Shown here in pieces: positions 1 to 8,116 of a stretch of 8,116 bases of DNA. A program made the position numbers and the translations under genes. Origin of the DNA: a virus (Duplodnaviria > Heunggongvirae > Uroviricota > Caudoviricetes); IMG/VR virus record IMGVR_UViG_2622736468_000006, positions 1 through 8,116 of that record, one strand, 5' to 3'. The notes beneath the pieces are model-generated. The model was not told the DNA's origin and searched no databases. It was given only the letters and a program-made list of their open reading frames with translations. How positions within the stretch are numbered: position 1 is the first letter of the stretch; each line of letters starts with the position of its first letter.

Positions 1-42
1 AATGTAAGTATCATTTTTCATTGTTATATCTTTTGAATATTT

Positions 43-50
43 CTCGTTAG
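43..50. repeat. Left copy of 8-bp target site duplication CTCGTTAG flanking IS1
   Basis: CTCGTTAG at 43-50 directly abuts the IS1 end and is repeated exactly at 819-826 abutting the other end. IS1 is known to generate 8-9 bp duplications. Confidence 0.85.
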
Positions 51-65
51 GGTAATGACTCCAAC

Positions 66-569
66 TTATTGATAGTGTTTTATGTTCAGATAATGCCCGA
101 TGACCTTGTCATGCAGCTCCACCGATTTTGAGAACGACAGTGACTTCCGTCCCAGCCTTGCCAGATGTTGTCTCAGATTCAGATTATGTCGCTCAATGCG
201 CTGAGTGTAACGCTTGCTGATTACGTGCAGCTTTCCCTTCAGGCGGGATTCATACAGCGGCCAGCCATCCGTCATCCATATCACCACGTCAAAGGGTGAC
301 AGCAGGCTCATAAGACACCCCAGCGTCGCCATAGTGCGTTCACCGAATACGTGCGCAACAACCGTCTTCCGGAGCCTGTCATACGCGTAAAACAGCCAGC
401 GCTGGCGCGATTTAGCCCCGACATAGCCCCACTGTTCGTCCATTTCCGCGCAGACGATGACGTCACTGCCCGGCTGTATGCGCGAGGTTACCGACTGCGG
501 CCTGAGTTTTTTAAGTGACGTAAAATCGTGTTGAGGCCAACGCCCATAATGCGGGCTGTTGCCCGGCAT
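66..569 (-). CDS. insB: IS1 InsB frame, the catalytic part of InsAB' transposase reached by a -1 frameshift from insA
   Basis: The 167-aa translation matches canonical IS1 InsB and overlaps the insA 3' end in the -1 frame. Confidence 0.95.
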
Positions 570-763
570 CCAACGCCATTCATGGCCATATCAATGATTT
601 TCTGGTGCGTACCGGGTTGAGAAGCGGTGTAAGTGAACTGCAGTTGCCATGTTTTACGGCAGTGAGAGCAGAGATAGCGCTGATGTCCGGCGGTGCTTTT
701 GCCGTTACGCACCACCCCGTCAGTAGCTGAACAGGAGGGACAGCTGATAGAAACAGAAGCCAC
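488..763 (-). CDS. insA: IS1 InsA, the transposition inhibitor / DNA-binding N-terminal part of the InsAB' transposase
   Basis: The 91-aa translation ([32 protein letters not shown]...) is the canonical InsA with its zinc-finger-like CxxC...CxxC and HTH. The start codon is GTG on the minus strand. Confidence 0.95.
506..514 (-). other. IS1 programmed -1 ribosomal frameshift motif (A6C slippery run) in the insA/insB overlap
   Basis: Plus strand reads GTTTTTTAA, i.e. TTAAAAAAC on the coding strand, inside the insA-insB overlap. This is the known IS1 frameshift site. Confidence 0.85.
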
Positions 764-818
764 TGGAGCACCTCAAAAACACCATCATACACTAAATCAG
801 TAAGTTGGCAGCATCACC

Positions 819-826
819 CTCGTTAG
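819..826. repeat. Right copy of 8-bp target site duplication CTCGTTAG flanking IS1
   Basis: Exact repeat of 43-50 immediately outside the IS1 terminus. Confidence 0.85.
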
Positions 827-1066
827 CCCGCGCCCAATCTGGAATTACGGGCTTTCTACACCATCCATATGGTCATCACAGATCCATTAGCCGATCCACA
901 TAAAGTTTAAATTTACTATATTTATCATGATATTATCGACAACCCCACCCTCCCTCTAGATCCTTTTTACTGAAAAAAAGTGAAATCCCTTTCATTCATT
1001 TCAGTTTATATTCTCCGCAAAGCCGCCAGTACTGGCGCGGGCTGGCGATATGTTTTGAAGAAAAAT

Positions 1067-2239
1067 TTAACTGAAAAATTTTATCGATCCAGAAACCGCA
1101 GGCGGGTGCGGTGTAGTGCCGTTTTTGTCTGCGAAAGATTTATTTTGTCTGCATGTGGCTACCTCAGAGCGTCGCTGTGAATTTGATCTTATTGCGGTGT
1201 CGCAGTGGTTATCCTGCGGCGTACATCCATCCCATTGCGATACAAAGCCACCTTTGCTGTGTACTGCGTGGAAACGTGATGGCGCAGTGATGGTGTAAAA
1301 CTCACCGGCCAGCCCTTCTTCATTGGCCATATCTTCAAACCCTCGCATTCTTACCATTAGTTCACATCGACGGATCGCCGGATTTGCAACGCTGCGGTGC
1401 ACCATGCTGTCCAGTGCAATGCGCAGCCCCTCATCATTCAGCAGTTCAAACTTTTTAAAGAACTCCAGATTCCGCTTTTTCTGGTCTATCCATTCACCCA
1501 GTGTTTTGCGGGATACATAAGCGCTGGCCGCTTTTTGTACCTGTCCCACCGCGATGGCCATATGTTCGCGCTGTGTATCACGCGCACGTTTAAGACGCAG
1601 GTACCACCATTCCGGCGCCATCATGCGCAGTATCCCTGATTCCGCCTTACGCATTTCCAGTTGGCCTTCATTTGCTTCGTGTTCAACCCAGTACGGCGGC
1701 TGGTTATTCAGCATCAGGCAACACGCACAAAGATGGCGGTATGATTCCAGGGTGCGGCGGTGCAGCTCTCTGGCGTCGTCAGTGCCGGAATCAAACTGTT
1801 CGGTGAAGTCATAAAGTGACTGGGAAATCCAGCCAGATACCTGGTCAGCCAGTTTTTTAAGATCAGGACGGTCTAGTGACAGCAAGCGTTCCAGCGACTT
1901 ACCAAAAGGAAGATCAGCAGCGTCAGCGGCCAGCGAGTAACGCGCAGCCACTTTGCGCAGACGTGGCAATACACTCCCGCCGATAGTTTGGCGCAGGAAT
2001 GTATTGGCACGGCGACGCCCGTCACGACCAGCAAACAGCTTTTCGTAACGACGGCCAAAATACCCGGCTAACCAGTCGGGTATCTCATGAAGGTACTGTG
2101 AGCGCCATTCGTAATCCTGCGGGTTAACCGACCACAGGCGGCGCTCGGTGATCGTGGCGTCTGTAGGCGTACCCGGTGCGAACGTTTCACGCCGCCAGGT
2201 ATCGACGGAGTGATGTTGGCCATTGGCTACAGGAGTCAT
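1067..2239 (-). pseudogene. gpA-like rolling-circle replication initiator (P2/186 A family), N-terminal ~390 codons only; likely truncated
   Basis: ATG at 2239-2237 overlaps the dam stop as ATGA. The translation contains FYTITAPSRFHAVH, resembling rolling-circle initiator motifs 1 and 2, but no paired-tyrosine (Y..KY) catalytic motif. It ends at 1067, about half the length of characterised P2/186 A proteins (roughly 700-760 aa), and the DNA downstream (819-1066) has stops in every frame. Confidence 0.6.
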
Positions 2240-3096
2240 GCGCAAGCCATCGCTATAGAATCAAGCGGCGACTTCAGAATTAACTCTGCGGCAACTTTCT
2301 GGCTTGCAGCTGCGGCACCAACACTACGCGGGGCATTAATGCGAACGGCTTCAAATCCGGCGTACAGGTAATGCACCATTTCCAGATCGGCATTAGAGGC
2401 CACAACCGGTACACCTTTTCTGGCCAGACGGCGCAACTTACGCGCCAGCCTCCCCTGATCCATGTGCGAAAAACCGCGCTCATGGTAAGCGGTGAAATTG
2501 TCGCTTTCAGTCAGATAAGGCGGATCACAGTAAACAACGTCATTCCCGTCCCGAACCAAATCGAGCGTTTCTGAATAGTGGGCAGTAATGAACGTTGCGC
2601 GTTTTGCTTTTTCAGCAAAGGCGCGGATTTCATCAGCGGGGAAATAAGGCTTTTTGTACTTACCGAACGGGACGTTGAACTGGCCTCGACGGTTATACCG
2701 GCACAGACCATTGAAGCAGTGCCGGTTCAGGTACAGGAAACGCGCAGCAGCTTCTACAGATTCCGAACCAAAGGATTTACCTGACTGGTTGAAAGCATCC
2801 CGCACAGCATAATAGAAAACTGCGCGGCTTTCTTCATCACCTAACGAACCGGCAGTAAACAGACTTTCCAGCTCATTGAGCAGCGCATCAGTGTGATACG
2901 CCATCGCCTTATAAAGATTAACCAGATCAGGATTCACATCTGCGATCAGATACTCGTCATAATCTGTATTCATCATGACGGCGCAGGAACCTGCGAACGG
3001 TTCAACCAAGCGTTTACCTTCTGGAAGGTGCGGACGCAGCTTAGGCATAAGGCGGGCTTTGCTACCCACCCATTTAAGCGGAGTTTTAACGGCCAT
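2236..3096 (-). CDS. dam: DNA adenine methyltransferase, Dam family (orphan N6-adenine MTase, predicted GATC specificity)
   Basis: 286 aa from ATG 3096-3094, preceded by GGAGG five nt upstream. Motifs: EPFAGSCAV (SAM-binding motif I), LYLNR...NGLCRYN...[14 protein letters not shown], and the catalytic VYCDPPY (motif IV). Collinear with E. coli Dam over its whole length. Confidence 0.9.
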
Positions 3097-3415
3097 AATG
3101 ACCTCCGCCAACTAACGACTCTGTTACACCGTTTGAAATGATGTATTCCAGCACTTCAAGCGGTGACAGCGAACGGATAGATAAAACCACCCAATTTTCG
3201 GCATCAGCGATAATTTCATTCACCGGCAAAACATGGGTGATAACTGCCGCCCACTCTCGCCCGGTGTATTTCCCGTGCTTCCACTCGCACAATGAAAGAA
3301 CATCACCGGTTTTATACCCGCGATCATTTTTACGCAGCTCGGCCTTTTTCTGACCAGCCACCACAGCATTAAGGTATTTCGGCGCAATTTTTACCGCATG
3401 GATTTTGATTGTCAT
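3086..3415 (-). CDS. ASCH-domain protein (PUA-like fold, DUF3850-like), function unknown
   Basis: 109 aa from ATG 3415-3413, which overlaps the exonuclease stop as ATGA. Carries the ASCH signature GxKxxExR (AGQKKAELR) followed by NDRGYKTGD. The track start at 3466 is a TTG and was not used. Confidence 0.65.
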
Positions 3416-4008
3416 TTTGCACCGCCTTGCGCTAAAGCTTTGATGACACCTAATGTCATTTTGCAATCAGCTAAAGCACGGTGTGCCTTCCCCTCGATCA
3501 CAACTCCTTCATGCGCGGCGGCATCAACTAACTTATGCCATTTATAACCGTGATATTTCCCCGGCTCGCCACGATATTCTGCATATAGTTTCATTGCGCA
3601 AACAGAATGAGCAGCAAGCATCCATGGCGCACCTTCAGAAGGTCTTCCATTCAATGCGTAGGTCTGACGAATTAACCGGAGATCATAATCGGCGTTATAG
3701 ATAACAAAGCCAAAACGTCTAATAAGTTCTTCCACTGCGCCGCATATATCTGTCCACGCAGGAGCATAGGCAACCATTTCATTTGTGATCCCATGAATGG
3801 CAATTGCTTCATCAGGAATAGGCTTAGTAGGTTTAACAAGCGTGTTAAGCAGAATAAATCCATGGCTATCAATGATGCATATTTCTACTATTTCTGCATC
3901 ATCACCCAGCCCCGTGGTTTCGGTATCAATAAATAGGCGATCATCGTCAAGCCACTGTTGTGCTAACAGGCTGATAGAATACTGCAATTGCTTTGTATTC
4001 AATTCCAT
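3412..4008 (-). CDS. DnaQ-like 3'-5' exonuclease, DEDDh family
   Basis: 198 aa from ATG 4008-4006, with AGGAGG six nt upstream. Exo I motif FIDTETTGL, Exo [12 protein letters not shown], Exo III HRALADC. The track start at 4029 is a TTG and was not used. Confidence 0.85.
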
Positions 4009-4232
4009 GCTGCACCTCCTTTGCTGCAAATCGCCGCTGCTTCTTCGCGGATTAACTCAACGATTTCCGCTGCGCTTAAACCTTCATTGGCTGCATGAGT
4101 AGCCAGCTTATCCAGACGGGTGGAACACAGATCAGCAGTTGCGGCTTTACCTTCCTGCGTGGCTTTGGTGAGCATGGCCAGCAGGTCGGTGCCTGATTTT
4201 GTTGCGGGTAAATCCTGACGTGTCATGTGCAT
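3999..4232 (-). CDS. Hypothetical phage protein, 77 aa, Ala-rich
   Basis: ATG at 4232-4230 with GAGGA seven nt upstream. Its 3' end overlaps the exonuclease start by 10 nt. No recognisable motif. Confidence 0.5.
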   Translation of the reverse strand: MHMTRQDLPATKSGTDLLAMLTKATQEGKAATADLCSTRLDKLATHAANEGLSAAEIVELIREEAAAICSKGGAAWN

Positions 4233-4299
4233 TTTGGTTTCCTCAAGGCAAAAGAATCCCCGGCCACTTGAATCGTGGACAAAAAATTCAGGCAGTTAA

Positions 4300-4701
4300 T
4301 TAGTGAAAAGTGGGTTGTACTGTGGCGGCTGAGTAGTTCGGTGCCGGAATCAGGTGCAGCTCATAGGTTATCCGCCACCACTCCTGGATCAGCGCTTTTA
4401 TCTCGCCAACTCCCAACGCCCCGGCTGTATAGAAAATTGCACGAATCCCCGCCAGCGCTTCTATCTGGGCTTCTTTGCTTTTCGCTTCGCGATATACGCA
4501 GCACCAGAAAGCAGCATTGATCGCCAGCCAGTGACGCGGATTTGTCATGTGTTCAGTGTCGTTGAAGAAGAACGGATGCAAAGCGATACGCCCATTTTTA
4601 CTGGTGCTTTTCTCTGCAAACGCTAATGCGTAGTTATGCGGGACGCCCCACACAGCCAGCTCTGCCCCTAGTGATTTACCTTCAACCGAAATAATGGACA
4701 T
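4300..4701 (-). CDS. Hypothetical phage protein, 133 aa
   Basis: ATG at 4701-4699 overlaps the upstream stop as ATGA, with AGGGG eight nt upstream. The ORF fills the whole interval without internal stops. No family recognised from sequence alone. Confidence 0.55.
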   Translation of the reverse strand: MSIISVEGKSLGAELAVWGVPHNYALAFAEKSTSKNGRIALHPFFFNDTEHMTNPRHWLAINAAFWCCVYREAKSKEAQIEALAGIRAIFYTAGALGVGEIKALIQEWWRITYELHLIPAPNYSAATVQPTFH

Positions 4702-5129
4702 CAGTGATTCCCCTGTTGCTGTAACTTCTGGACAATATGAGGTGCAATCACCATCTGCACCCCGCTGCTGCTATAAATTGGATGAACCTTCTTGATTGGG
4801 CGGTTCGCGGTACGTTTCGAAAAATCGCTGTCACGTAAACTGCCGAAACCTTCAAACGTTAACCGCGCCCGTGAAATGCCCTGGCGCAGTTGAATCATGT
4901 CCCGATAGCCCAGGCGTTCATAAAGCTCACGCCAGCAGCACTTGCTTAAATGGGCTTTAAATGCCCCGGTACCAGAAGTAACCGCAGCAGCATGAAGTAC
5001 TACGCCGCGCCACTCCGGTGTCAAGTTGTCCCACCATTCAGCGGCCTCGCTGCTTTCGCTGAAGTATTTGCGGCGGATCTGTTTTAAATGCTCCAGCCCG
5101 CGCTTTTGCTGTTCCTGGCTAATCGCCAT
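4701..5129 (-). CDS. Hypothetical phage protein, 142 aa, basic
   Basis: ATG at 5129-5127, immediately preceded on the coding strand by a G9 homopolymer. The stop overlaps the next ATG. No family recognised. Confidence 0.55.
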   Translation of the reverse strand: MAISQEQQKRGLEHLKQIRRKYFSESSEAAEWWDNLTPEWRGVVLHAAAVTSGTGAFKAHLSKCCWRELYERLGYRDMIQLRQGISRARLTFEGFGSLRDSDFSKRTANRPIKKVHPIYSSSGVQMVIAPHIVQKLQQQGNH

Positions 5130-5133
5130 AGCG

Positions 5134-5142
5134 CCCCCCCCC
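5134..5142. repeat. Homopolymeric tract, C9 on the plus strand (G9 on the coding strand)
   Basis: Nine consecutive C at 5134-5142. On the minus strand this reads TAG-GGGGGGGG-CGCT-ATG, lying between the stop of the 57-aa ORF and the start of the 142-aa ORF. Confidence 0.9.
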
Positions 5143-5315
5143 TATAGCCCCATCAGACGACGCCACCACGGGCGACGCGGCTGCTGGCCATTGAATTTGT
5201 ACATGTGGCCAGGGTTCCAGCGCTGACCGTTCGGCAGTTCAATCCAGCCCGTTGAACCACTGGGCAATTGCATGGCCGGTGATTCGTTTTTCAGGTAAGT
5301 GACAAACGCTTTCAT
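5142..5315 (-). CDS. Small hypothetical protein, 57 aa, in the position occupied by fil-like genes in 186-type phages
   Basis: Not in the supplied track. ATG at 5315-5313 with GGGAGA upstream, directly after the cII stop. Translation: MKAFVTYLKNESPAMQLPSGSTGWIELPNGQRWNPGHMYKFNGQQPRRPWWRRLMGL. Stop is TAG at 5144-5142. Confidence 0.45.
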   Translation of the reverse strand: MKAFVTYLKNESPAMQLPSGSTGWIELPNGQRWNPGHMYKFNGQQPRRPWWRRLMGL

Positions 5316-5324
5316 GGTTCTCCC

Positions 5325-5828
5325 TCACATCAGGCCGGTGGCGTTGGTTGTGACCAGATCCACCGCAGCGGCCAAAACCGGCGCAGAGTGAATACGGCTT
5401 TCAACGGTATAAGCCAGCACGGATAAGCTACGGATTGCATCTCGGGCGCGATCCAGAATTTGAGTACGGCGGGCGGCGGTCATATGGCCAGCTGATACGG
5501 CTTCCCCAGCAATCGCGCCCACACTGGCTGTGGCGCTCAGTGCACACAGTTGTATGTTGCCTTCTGTTGCATTGTTCACCGGTACGGATGGAAGGCAGTT
5601 AATCTGCCCCAGCATCCCATCCAGTAAACGCGCATCTTCGGTGTAATCCGTGATAGCCAAAAGTTCATCACAGGTCAGGCGGTGCGGTTGCGCTGGGTTC
5701 AGTTTATTACGCAGGATCTGCGGCCTCATACCAACGGCAGCGGCCACATCTTCAAGATTGTGCTCAATTGCAAATGCTCGGCAAGCCGCATCAAAGTGCG
5801 CATGTTTAGAGGTCTGGTAATCAAACAT
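5325..5828 (-). CDS. cII: Phage regulatory protein CII (186 CII / CP76 family), lysogeny-establishment activator
   Basis: 167 aa from ATG 5828-5826, with GGGAGAGG upstream. The N-terminus (MFDYQTSKHAHFDAACRAFA...ILRNKLNPAQPH) matches my recollection of the 186 CII family. It is the second gene of the lytic operon, after the cox/apl-like gene. Confidence 0.75.
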   Translation of the reverse strand: MFDYQTSKHAHFDAACRAFAIEHNLEDVAAAVGMRPQILRNKLNPAQPHRLTCDELLAITDYTEDARLLDGMLGQINCLPSVPVNNATEGNIQLCALSATASVGAIAGEAVSAGHMTAARRTQILDRARDAIRSLSVLAYTVESRIHSAPVLAAAVDLVTTNATGLM

Positions 5829-5858
5829 TGTTTGCCTCTCCCTAATCCGTAGGATGGA

Positions 5859-6080
5859 TTACGCGTTAAGCGAAATGTCACATTCGCTTAAAGCCTGAAT
5901 AGTGAGCGCGGCCATGTTGACTTCGACCAGGCCTTTCTTCTGCTTACCCTTCGGCTTAATAGGTAATTTCCCGTATTCGATCAGGTTCCTGGCGGTTTCT
6001 TTGTTGGTACCAGTACGGCGGCAATACTCGTCTAAAGGCAGGTATGGCTCTGGGATGATGATTGTAATGTTCGGACGCAT
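5859..6080 (-). CDS. Cox/Apl-type small HTH protein (excisionase and switch regulator)
   Basis: 73 aa from ATG 6080-6078, with GGAG eight nt upstream. It is the first gene of the minus-strand operon, divergent from the repressor gene. The segment IPEPYLPLDEYCRRTGTNKETARNLIEYGKLP resembles the Cox/Apl N-terminal HTH. The track's longer version starts at a GTG at 6140. Confidence 0.6.
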   Translation of the reverse strand: MRPNITIIIPEPYLPLDEYCRRTGTNKETARNLIEYGKLPIKPKGKQKKGLVEVNMAALTIQALSECDISLNA

Positions 6081-6199
6081 GAGGCAAACTCCATAAGTTA
6101 ACCTGTACGGCAATACAGGGCTGTAACTGTCAATATTCACTTAAACCTACAAAGCGGAGTTTAAACTCACTTTGCGCAAGATTTCAAGGTAAAACTTTC
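6081..6199. promoter_or_regulatory. Lysis-lysogeny switch region between the cox/apl-like and cI-like genes; expected to hold the lytic and lysogenic promoters and their operators
   Basis: 119-bp intergenic region between divergent start codons. Contains a CTGT-N8-ACAG motif, a TTGACA hexamer on the minus strand (6133-6128), a 10-bp direct repeat and a 12-bp palindrome. Exact promoter hexamers could not be assigned with confidence. Confidence 0.6.
6103..6118. promoter_or_regulatory. Candidate LexA (SOS) box, or repressor operator: CTGTACGGCAATACAG
   Basis: Fits the LexA core CTGT-N8-ACAG with dyad-symmetric CTGTA/TACAG arms; located 23 bp upstream of the cox/apl-like start. Resembles the E. 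coli sulA box (CTGTACATCCATACAG) except in the central four positions. Confidence 0.35.
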
Positions 6200-6778
6200 G
6201 TGAACCTACAAATTGAGTTTTCTCATGGCGGAGCTGAGGTACTAGATAGAGTTATCCAAGCGTATGGATTCAACACAAAACTAGCCCTAGCCGAACATCT
6301 TGATATAGCAAGCAGCAGTCTGGCTAACCGGTATAAGAGGGATTTTTTTCCAGCTGATATCGTTGTTAGATGTATGGCTGAAACAGGAGCTACTCTGGAA
6401 TGGCTTGCGACTGGACAAGGTAGAAAGTTTAACGATGACGAATTAGACATCATGAAATTGCCACGCAAGAAGATTGTGGACGGAAAACTCTATGAGTCTG
6501 GTTTCCTAATGCTCGATAAGGTTACTTTTTTACCTGGCAAACCTTTACCGCAGAATCCTATCTGTGTGATTGATAACACAATGCAATACATTGTTGATCA
6601 ACACTTTACTGAAGTTTATGACGATGTTTGGCTTGTCGAAGTTGAAGGTAAAACCAGCGTTAGAACACTAACACGCATCCCTGTGGGAAAAGTTAGAGTA
6701 AGCGGCGTAGGTATGGCTTTTGACTGCGGTATTGACGATATAAAAATCATCGGCCGCATTGTTCTGACGATTGAATGA
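6200..6778 (+). CDS. cI: Immunity repressor, 186 CI-like (N-terminal HTH, no LexA-type peptidase domain evident)
   Basis: 192 aa from GTG 6200, the only in-frame start upstream of the HTH segment KLALAEHLDIASSSLANRYKRD. Sits directly upstream of int with its stop 1 nt before the int ATG, and divergent from the lytic operon. Length and arrangement match 186 CI. Confidence 0.75.
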   Translation: MNLQIEFSHGGAEVLDRVIQAYGFNTKLALAEHLDIASSSLANRYKRDFFPADIVVRCMAETGATLEWLATGQGRKFNDDELDIMKLPRKKIVDGKLYESGFLMLDKVTFLPGKPLPQNPICVIDNTMQYIVDQHFTEVYDDVWLVEVEGKTSVRTLTRIPVGKVRVSGVGMAFDCGIDDIKIIGRIVLTIE

Positions 6779-6779
6779 A

Positions 6780-7820
6780 ATGAGTGTTCGTAAACTTCCG
6801 ACAGGCGAATGGATCGCCGACTTCTACACCGTCAACCGTAGTAATGGTAAGAACGGGAAGCGCATACGTAAAAAATTTGCCACGAAGGGGGAAGCCCTGG
6901 CATTTGAGAACCATACGCTTCAGAAAGTAGACAATGCGCCCTGGCTGGGTGAAGGGAAGGACAAACGAACTTTAATAGACCTGATCACAATGTGGTATGA
7001 ACGCCACGGAGTAGCTTTGCGCAATGGTCAAAAGCGTAAAGACGCTATGACCTGGGCGGCAGAGTGCATGGGATTCCCGCTAGCTACAGAGTTTAATGCC
7101 CAGCTGTTCACGGCCTACCGCGCAAAAAGGCTTGATGGGCATTATGCCCGCACTAGCAGAGTATCCAAGGTTTCCCCGAAAACAATGAACCTTGAACATG
7201 CTTACTTCCTGGCTATGTTCAACGAGCTGAAACGAATCGGGGAATGGTCAGCCCCCAACCCACTGGAAAACGTCAGACAGTATCGTACTGATGAAACCGA
7301 AATGGCTTTCCTCACTGCTGAAGAAATTGAGCGGCTTTTGCTGGAATGCAAACGAAGCAAAGTAAAATACTTGGAGCTAGTCGTAAAAATCTGTCTTGCG
7401 ACCGGCGCAAGATGGAATGAAGCGGCAACGCTGAAAAGCTCTCAGATCGCAGGCGATAAAGTTACGTTCGTTAAAACCAAAGGGAAGCGCAACAGAACAA
7501 TCCCCCTTGATGATGAACTTCTATCCGAATTGCCTGAAACGAAAGGCGCTCTGTTCCCCAAACCCTGCTATAACGCGTTCCGCTCTGCTTTGGAACGCGC
7601 AGGCATTGAACTCCCCTCCGGCCAGCTTACCCATGTACTGCGCCATACATTTGCCAGCCACTTTATGATGAACGGCGGGAACATTCTGGTTCTGCAAAAA
7701 ATTCTCGGCCACGCTGACATCACTATGACAATGCGTTATGCCCATTTCGCCCCAAGCCACCTTGAAGATGCCGTGCGACTTAACCCCTTAAAATGTCGCA
7801 AAAATGTCGCGATAGCTTAG
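6780..7820 (+). CDS. int: Tyrosine recombinase / integrase, P2 Int family
   Basis: 346 aa from ATG 6780 (the track begins at TTG 6771). C-terminal catalytic signature present: LATGARWNEAA, HVLRHTFASH, LQKILGH, MRYAHFAP (catalytic Tyr). The N-terminus (MSVRKLPTGEW...GKRIRKKF) is collinear with P2 Int. Confidence 0.95.
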   Translation: MSVRKLPTGEWIADFYTVNRSNGKNGKRIRKKFATKGEALAFENHTLQKVDNAPWLGEGKDKRTLIDLITMWYERHGVALRNGQKRKDAMTWAAECMGFPLATEFNAQLFTAYRAKRLDGHYARTSRVSKVSPKTMNLEHAYFLAMFNELKRIGEWSAPNPLENVRQYRTDETEMAFLTAEEIERLLLECKRSKVKYLELVVKICLATGARWNEAATLKSSQIAGDKVTFVKTKGKRNRTIPLDDELLSELPETKGALFPKPCYNAFRSALERAGIELPSGQLTHVLRHTFASHFMMNGGNILVLQKILGHADITMTMRYAHFAPSHLEDAVRLNPLKCRKNVAIA

Positions 7821-7854
7821 AAATACTGCCGAATACTCACAGATATTAACTAAC

Positions 7855-7884
7855 GTAACTTATTGATAACACTGTAACTTATTG
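7855..7884 (+). repeat. Two 11-bp direct repeats GTAACTTATTG (7855-7865 and 7874-7884) in the attP-like region downstream of int
   Basis: Exact 11-bp direct repeats 19 bp apart, 35 bp after the int stop. An AATACT pair also occurs at 7822-7827 and 7832-7837. Consistent with arm-type Int or IHF sites. Confidence 0.4.
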
Positions 7885-7907
7885 TTTTTCGTAGATAGTT
7901 GATGCTT

Positions 7908-7929
7908 TATAATATAGCCTGTGCTATAT
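7908..7929 (+). promoter_or_regulatory. Candidate promoter -10 element (TATAAT, 7908-7913) overlapping a perfect inverted repeat ATATAGC-N4-GCTATAT (7912-7929)
   Basis: Perfect consensus -10 hexamer about 75 bp upstream of the small ORF at 7988, with only a weak -35. A 7-bp-arm perfect inverted repeat overlaps it. Confidence 0.3.
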
Positions 7930-7987
7930 CTGTATGTAATGCAATCATCCCTCAAGGATCGACGGGATTAGCAAGTCAGGAGGTCTT

Positions 7988-8116
7988 ATGAATGAGTTCA
8001 AGAGGTGTATGCGCGTGTTTAGTCATTCTCCCTTTAAAGTACGGTTAATGCTGCTCTCTATGTTGTGCGATATGGTCAACAACAAACCGCAGCAAGATAA
8101 ACCTTCCGATAAATAG
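7988..8116 (+). CDS. Small hypothetical protein, 42 aa (MNEFKRCMRVFSHSPFKVRLMLLSMLCDMVNNKPQQDKPSDK)
   Basis: ATG at 7988 preceded by AGGAGG (7978-7983, 4-nt spacer). Ends with TAG exactly at the window end. Not in the supplied track because it is under the length cutoff. Confidence 0.4.
   Translation: MNEFKRCMRVFSHSPFKVRLMLLSMLCDMVNNKPQQDKPSDK

Follow-up and report, generated by a model that had tools for sequence, protein, structure and literature searches.

The small protein MntS of Escherichia coli K-12 is expressed from within the RybA RNA, which occurs as several species of 205 to ~400 nt that share a common 5' end (Martin et al. 2015, PMC4361602). Transcription of mntS is repressed by MntR:Mn (PMC4361602, PMC9806134), and in a reporter study MntR was needed for repression of PmntS by Mn (PMC9806134). 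The protein, whose K-12 form is identical to the one analyzed here, binds and inhibits the manganese exporter MntP (Wright et al., bioRxiv 10.1101/2023.06.02.543501), and its reported origin is the signal peptide of a SitA protein linked to MntR (Wright et al., bioRxiv 10.1101/2023.06.02.543501). It is an already known gene, annotated and characterised both genetically and biochemically, that is at issue in what follows, and one that acts in manganese homeostasis, which has been linked to virulence and to the survival of oxidative stress.

The DNA analyzed here (the window) is the whole of an 8,116-nt stretch of a viral record (IMG/VR IMGVR_UViG_2622736468_000006, positions 1 to 8,116; Caudoviricetes). 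An initial annotation, made from the letters alone, had drawn attention to a 42-aa open reading frame near its right end, just beyond the integrase gene int, and had proposed that it is either a phage moron or lysogenic-conversion gene or else the first host gene at the prophage junction. Comparison with sequenced enterobacterial genomes indicates that this reading frame is almost certainly mntS, which belongs to the core chromosomal genes of E. coli and its relatives among the Enterobacteriaceae and lies outside the prophage, and that the prophage is joined to it within its promoter.

Identity and conservation of the reading frame

The coding sequence occupies 7988..8116 on the plus strand (ATG at 7988, TAG at 8114–8116) and consists of 42 codons and a stop codon that forms the last bases of the window; its translation is MNEFKRCMRVFSHSPFKVRLMLLSMLCDMVNNKPQQDKPSDK. 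All residues of the peptide (42/42) are identical to those of E. coli K-12 b4705, and alignment with K-12 extends this identity to the whole of 7908–8116, which matches the K-12 mntS promoter and gene at 209/209 nt. Against the NCBIfam model NF033226 (small_MntS, an equivalog with a cut-off of 36 bits) the peptide scores 96 bits (E = 6.3e-28) over profile positions 1–40 of 41. A local Pfam scan of the 42-aa peptide returned no match; for database MntS homologues a PF26599 assignment is precomputed. The protein search yielded 136 database homologues, nearly all of them 41–43 aa long and named MntS, from Escherichia, Citrobacter, Salmonella, Klebsiella, Enterobacter, Kosakonia, Kluyvera and other genera, and the RefSeq label at the matching place in E. 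coli genomes is mntS, 'manganase accumulation protein MntS', in every match listed.

The residues that characterize the family are present in the peptide, namely the N-terminal MNEFKRC, H13, the P15–F16 motif, a hydrophobic helix, C27 and D28; the PF motif has been described previously (bioRxiv 10.1101/2023.06.02.543501), and E3, C7, H13, C27 and D28 are residues targeted by mutant plasmids (PMC4361602). Across 18 diverse homologues M1, N2, E3, K5, R6, C7, V10, F11, H13 and S14 are invariant, as are P15, F16, V18, R19, L20, M21, L22, M25, K33 and P34. The short hydrophobic centre and charged tail ascribed to the product at the outset are as described: the centre is VRLMLLSMLCDMV, residues 18–30, with a polar, charged tail beyond it, and such a centre is explained by its being the former signal-peptide h-region of SitA.

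Conservation in this frame is that of a protein. The orthologous ORFs are intact in 80/80 species representatives of the Enterobacteriaceae, at 41–43 aa, and over the first 36 codons of 74 distinct sequences the variable columns number 16, 8 and 31 at codon positions 1, 2 and 3, respectively. Equal frequencies of synonymous and non-synonymous change had been named beforehand as a sign that the gene is not real; the two are not equal, the median dN/dS of orthologues versus the window being 0.083 in frame with a maximum of 0.24 (Nei-Gojobori), and the gene stands. Reading this DNA in the other two frames yields dN/dS values of 0.94 and 2.8. The mntS frame is thus under strong purifying selection.

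Enterobacteriaceae-type mntS is found also in a few oddly labelled records, comprising a 'Candidatus Promineifilaceae' MAG, a 'Vagococcus sp.' assembly and two 'Enterobacter hormaechei' chromosomes (L040, L068, L009, L010), with MntS in the two chromosomes identical to that of E. coli over its 41 residues; these labels probably reflect contamination, mis-binning or mislabelling.

Promoter, operator and 5' leader

The elements expected of an expressed gene can be read directly upstream of the ATG. The -10 hexamer TATAAT of the mntS/rybA promoter lies at 7908..7913 on the plus strand, and the corresponding position in other genera reads TATAAT, TAAAAT or TACAAT. The palindrome ATATAGC-CTGT-GCTATAT (7912..7929, plus strand), a perfect 7-4-7 inverted repeat with 7-nt arms at 7912–7918 and 7923–7929, overlaps both the -10 hexamer and the transcription start. 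The latter is placed at 7921 (plus strand) by alignment with the RefSeq rybA feature of K-12 (852725-853064, minus strand, a 340-nt ncRNA), the 5' end of which, 853064, corresponds to window position 7921 as the likely 5' end of the RybA/mntS RNA; TATAAT ends 7 nt before this position, which itself falls inside the palindrome. The Shine-Dalgarno sequence AGGAGG at 7978..7983 (plus strand) is followed by TCTT and then by the ATG, a spacing of 4 nt. The initial annotation had reported the 42-aa ORF, AGGAGG-N4-ATG, a perfect TATAAT and an overlapping palindrome, all of which are present at the places given, and its suggestion of a genuinely expressed, regulated small gene is supported, the palindrome over the -10 hexamer sitting where a repressor operator would. 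Only its start coordinate, 7899, has no significance, as it is just the TTG of a 30-aa frame (7899-7991) inside the promoter and 5' UTR; this frame and a 31-aa minus-strand frame (7860-7955) both fall in promoter/UTR DNA.

Taken by themselves, the motifs are not beyond chance, and it is orthology and conservation that make them real. With up to one mismatch allowed, 0.24 occurrences of ATAGC-N4-GCTAT are expected in the window, and 43/200 shuffles contain at least one; a simple promoter scan misses the mntS promoter in the window as it does in K-12, there being no -35 element at a 16-18 nt spacer. The -10 hexamer, palindrome, Shine-Dalgarno sequence and ORF are, however, conserved in ~78 distinct upstream regions of other Enterobacteriaceae; ATAGCCTGTGCTATATCT is invariant in these orthologous promoters, and AGGAGG is nearly so in the alignment of orthologous upstream regions.

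The ATAGC-N4-GCTAT core is common to the mntS palindrome and to the palindrome upstream of mntH in K-12, aaacATAGCaaagGCTATgttt, which we take to be the MntR box (Patzer and Hantke 2001). Likeness of sequence and position makes 7912-7929 (box 2) the probable MntR operator of mntS, and MntR bound there would occlude both the -10 hexamer and the start site. According to published experiments, Mn-bound MntR represses mntS when manganese is plentiful, likely via this palindrome; as manganese falls, the 42-aa MntS is made and inhibits MntP, and the cell keeps its manganese.

The 5' UTR contains a small conserved hairpin at 7948..7966 (plus strand; stem UCC.UC / GA.GGG with a 7-nt loop), predicted by RNAalifold from 20 species; in 3/5 of its pairs CG is replaced by UA among these species, with both partners changed. 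Between 7834-7846 in the phage arm and 7926-7938 at the start of the mntS transcript there is also an inverted repeat of 13 nt, imperfect at 85% complementarity, which may be due to chance.

Prophage and attachment site

Upstream of the mntS -10 hexamer the window is phage DNA. The tyrosine integrase gene int (6780..7820, plus strand; Pfam Int_N 6.7e-31, Phage_integrase 9.4e-26), annotated as 'phage integrase' in matching genomes, lies on the same strand as mntS, and directly upstream of it is the gene for the CI repressor (6200..6778, plus strand; Pfam Phage_CI_repr 2.5e-25, Phage_CI_C 6e-31), annotated there as 'phage repressor protein CI'. The prophage of related genomes has P2-family capsid, terminase and Ogr genes, tail genes annotated DUF2586, DUF2590 and similar, and a 186-type CI/CII/Int region; judged from the closest relatives, it amounts to ~32 kb between mntS and mntR. 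Among 50,697 deposited phage genomes, the best match to the integrase DNA of the window has 68% identity.

The remainder of the window, as labelled from the annotation of related genomes, includes an early region (2236-5828) with a Dam-like DNA adenine methylase, a DUF3850 protein, a 3'-5' exonuclease, a CII-family regulator and several small proteins. At the left end of the window there is a copy of IS1 (~51-818; insA/insB ORFs at 66-763, minus strand). Similarity to related prophages stops at ~1206, and 819-1205 is other DNA that is found in few genomes; the ORF of the phage replication endonuclease (1067-2245) encodes 392 aa, versus ~673 aa in related prophages. Because of the IS1 copy and the replication endonuclease cut to 392 codons, the prophage in the strain from which the window derives is probably defective.

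The phage/host crossover was located by comparing five sequences: the empty site (attB) of K-12, the junction in the window, the attL sites of two lysogens (strain 1919D3, L003; isolate AHB29, L085), and an attP-like IMG/VR contig (L086). The sole stretch common to all five is the 11-bp core TATAATATAGC, at 7908..7918 of the window (either strand), K-12 L001 3068-3078, L003 12219-12229, L085 7653-7663 and L086 ~29-39 (minus strand). Window and K-12 are identical on the right of the core; on its left, 8/25 bases match attB. The attP-like contig, the one found by an exact-pattern scan of IMG/VR, has int, then the core, then other, non-host DNA. Each end of the prophage thus has a copy of the core and the empty site has one, and a tyrosine integrase gene lies alongside, as befits an attR site in the window. 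The core consists of the mntS -10 hexamer and the left half of the palindrome, so that the phage/host junction does not lie beyond the promoter but runs through it at the -10 hexamer, a point missed in the initial annotation. The prophage, of the P2 family and with a CI/CII/Int region of the 186 type, has integrated between mntR and mntS by recombination at TATAATATAGC.

The phage arm of the attachment site (7821..7907, plus strand) supplies everything upstream of the mntS -10 hexamer; it has no similarity to the K-12 spacer, and the same sequence is found beside int in the lysogens and in the attP-like contig. Direct repeats had been noted in the spacer after int, and they are there: AAAATGTCGC occurs twice at 7790..7810 (plus strand), overlapping the 3' end of int, and GTAACTTATTG occurs twice closer to the core, at 7855-7865 and 7874-7884 (plus strand). 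The repeated motif of 7790-7810, AATGTCGC, recurs in the opposite phage arm, beside attL, of both lysogens (L085 7720-7745; L003 12288-12307), as the pair TTTTGTCGCAAAAATGTCGC / GTGTCGCAATAATGTCGC. Such recurrence is expected of arm-type integrase sites, which the 7790-7810 repeats are likely to be.

Chromosomal distribution and alternative readings

Megablast of 7780-8116 against complete E. coli genomes finds the mntS-side DNA in 5422/5426, while the phage side of the same query is matched in only 30 of these 5422. In the other 5392 the mntR-mntS spacer of the K-12 type is uninterrupted; in the 30 it is split, so that ~0.5% of complete E. coli genomes carry a prophage at mntS. Gene order was examined in the genomes of 80 species representatives, each encoding a relative of MntS. 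In all 80, opgE adjoins mntS, and in 78 mntR is found upstream, at a median of 186 bp from mntR start to mntS ATG, the other two loci having too little upstream DNA to judge mntR; no relative of the integrase of the window occurs within 1.5 kb of mntS in any of the 80. The order in K-12 is opgE, then rybA/mntS (minus strand), then divergent mntR. Prophage-free genomes accordingly read mntR, mntS, opgE, and the closest matching genomes read mntR, prophage, mntS, opgE. Both mntR and opgE are outside the window, since it stops at the mntS stop codon and has the prophage upstream. Because of these counts of distribution and synteny, mntS is assigned to the chromosome and the prophage is regarded as a rare later arrival.

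Of the two origins offered in the initial annotation, that of a host gene, the first one past the junction, is right, as the 5392 prophage-free genomes carry mntS. The other would make the ORF a piece of phage cargo at the prophage end, either a moron or a gene for lysogenic conversion; it draws on a position 168 bp past the int stop codon and beside att-like repeats, and has next to no chance of being right: a gene present in nearly every E. coli genome cannot readily be ascribed to a prophage found in 30, its place between mntR and opgE is conserved across genera with no integrase nearby, the phage/host boundary at 7908-7918 is upstream of it, and past the core the attP-like viral contig has other DNA and not mntS. 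The cargo hypothesis was rejected on distribution and synteny. A different question is whether the locus is mainly the regulatory small RNA RybA, with the reading frame incidental or secondary. The K-12 orthologue is indeed overlain by the RefSeq ncRNA rybA of 340 nt, effects of RybA on aromatic amino-acid genes under peroxide stress are credited to Gerstle et al. 2012 in the account given in PMC4361602, and the small 5' UTR hairpin shows compensatory changes. Against this, purifying selection is strong in the protein frame only, the phenotypes of overproduction do not depend on Hfq and have been ascribed to the protein (PMC4361602), being reportedly all lost with a start-codon or frameshift mutation, and it is the MntS protein that binds MntP (bioRxiv 10.1101/2023.06.02.543501); moreover, an Rfam scan of the whole window matched no family at threshold, in a window that reaches to nt 196 of RybA (205-340 nt) and cuts the RNA at least 9 nt before its shortest 3' end. 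A primarily RNA-based function is accordingly very improbable, though the locus may act in both ways. Identification of the ORF as chromosomal mntS removes the false lead of phage cargo and accounts for each of the motifs noted earlier.

Consequences of the split promoter

Because the phage carries the core, the -10 hexamer, operator, start site, UTR and gene are rebuilt on the mntS side, and all are intact in the window; upstream of the -10 hexamer there is phage DNA. Integration duplicates the perfect -10 hexamer at both ends of the prophage. Two conserved host elements are affected. One is TTAACG, which agrees with the -35 consensus at 4/6 positions, stands 15 nt from the -10 hexamer and is missing from the mntS promoter of the window. 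The other is a second MntR-like box, (A/T)TAGC-N4-GCTAT, directly upstream of the -10 hexamer in prophage-free genomes and conserved across genera, which reads TTAGCAATAGCTAT in K-12 (853078-853091; L001 3078-3091, minus strand) and ATAGCCATAGCTAT in many genera, at the same position in the upstream regions of L005-L084. Both end up on the mntR side after integration. In the phage DNA upstream of the mntS -10 hexamer the best match to a -35 element is 3/6. A consensus scan finds no terminator-like site in 7700-8116, and the region from the 3' end of int to the transcription start site of mntS (7805-7925) folds worse than 200/200 shuffles (z = +2.46). Since cI and int share their strand with mntS, with no such terminator and with low structure between, read-through from the prophage into mntS is physically possible.

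The hybrid promoter presumably still works, although, with no recognisable -35 element and without the conserved upstream elements, it could depart from the wild type in strength and in its response to Mn. A further reading, which adds to the identification of the gene as mntS and does not replace it, is that mntS is misregulated in this lysogen, being weaker, less tightly repressed by Mn, or fed by read-through from the prophage. The replacement of host by phage DNA upstream of the -10 hexamer (8/25 matches to attB), the loss of the conserved TTAACG and of the second box, the orientation of cI (6200-6778) and int (6780-7820) toward mntS with no terminator-like site between, and the open structure of 7805-7925 all point in this direction. 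On the other hand, the -10 hexamer, downstream operator, start site and UTR are intact, and Mn repression in its basic form may well be retained; a good -35 element at normal spacing is absent from the wild-type promoter too, and the loss may matter little; and the upstream box is no more than a candidate for MntR binding, and Rho-dependent termination could still occur. On balance misregulation of mntS in this lysogen appears unlikely.

At the opposite junction, next to mntR in the related lysogens, the host promoter half and the duplicated TATAAT face those prophage cargo genes that lie on that strand. In lysogen 1919D3 the facing gene is an acetyltransferase ~80 bp away (L003 12195-13012), and in AHB29 it is an AAA ATPase ~250 bp away, followed by a serine O-acetyltransferase (L085 7630-10298), so that the cargo differs between the two. 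On the mntS side, placement downstream of a constitutively expressed cI-int, without the -35-like element and the second box, could lead to partly manganese-independent expression; on the mntR side, the host promoter half and TATAAT directed into the prophage could bring phage cargo under host manganese control. Rewiring on both sides, with partly Mn-independent mntS and Mn-controlled cargo, by which the phage would both perturb and exploit the host Mn regulon, is a quite unlikely outcome and is put forward as speculation.

Whatever its regulatory consequences, the locus is a natural case in which the attachment core of a temperate phage is a host -10 hexamer plus half of a repressor operator, and in which integration swaps the upstream and downstream halves of a promoter while the -10 hexamer is rebuilt on both sides. 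Within the library searched, no paper on prophage integration at the mntS site was found, and the coincidence of a prophage core with the mntS -10 hexamer and operator seems to be unreported.

Comparison with known systems

The closest described system is mntS of K-12 itself (b4705; RybA), with which the locus shares the same protein, the DNA from the -10 hexamer to the stop codon, the operator, the start position, the UTR and the Shine-Dalgarno sequence. The two differ upstream, where the K-12 promoter continues into the 186-bp spacer with divergent mntR and the window has phage DNA.

At the level of the protein, the MntS-like SitA signal peptides of Rahnella and Sodalis have been proposed as ancestors of MntS (bioRxiv 10.1101/2023.06.02.543501). 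Like MntS they comprise 40-45 residues with a polar N-terminus, the PF motif (P15 F16) and a central hydrophobic helix. Unlike SitA, MntS is a stand-alone ORF that has no AXA cleavage motif, no mature domain and a reduced hydrophobicity, and no sitBCD genes follow mntS, the next gene in relatives being opgE.

The operator resembles the K-12 mntH box in being a palindrome with an ATAGC-N4-GCTAT core close to the start of the gene. The mntH box is a perfect 9-4-9 repeat with 9-nt arms AAACATAGC/GCTATGTTT, whereas the mntS box has 7-nt arms, ATATAGC/GCTATAT; and mntS, unlike mntH, has a second, similar box directly upstream in prophage-free genomes.

The attachment site, finally, has much in common with those of the P2/186 type. 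A tyrosine integrase gene lies beside att, a short core is duplicated at both ends, repeated motifs are present in both phage arms, and the genes for CI and Int are neighbours on one strand, that for CII being divergent according to the annotation of relatives. The window differs from P2/186 sites in its target, which is neither a tRNA gene nor one of the classical P2 sites but the -10 hexamer and operator of mntS.
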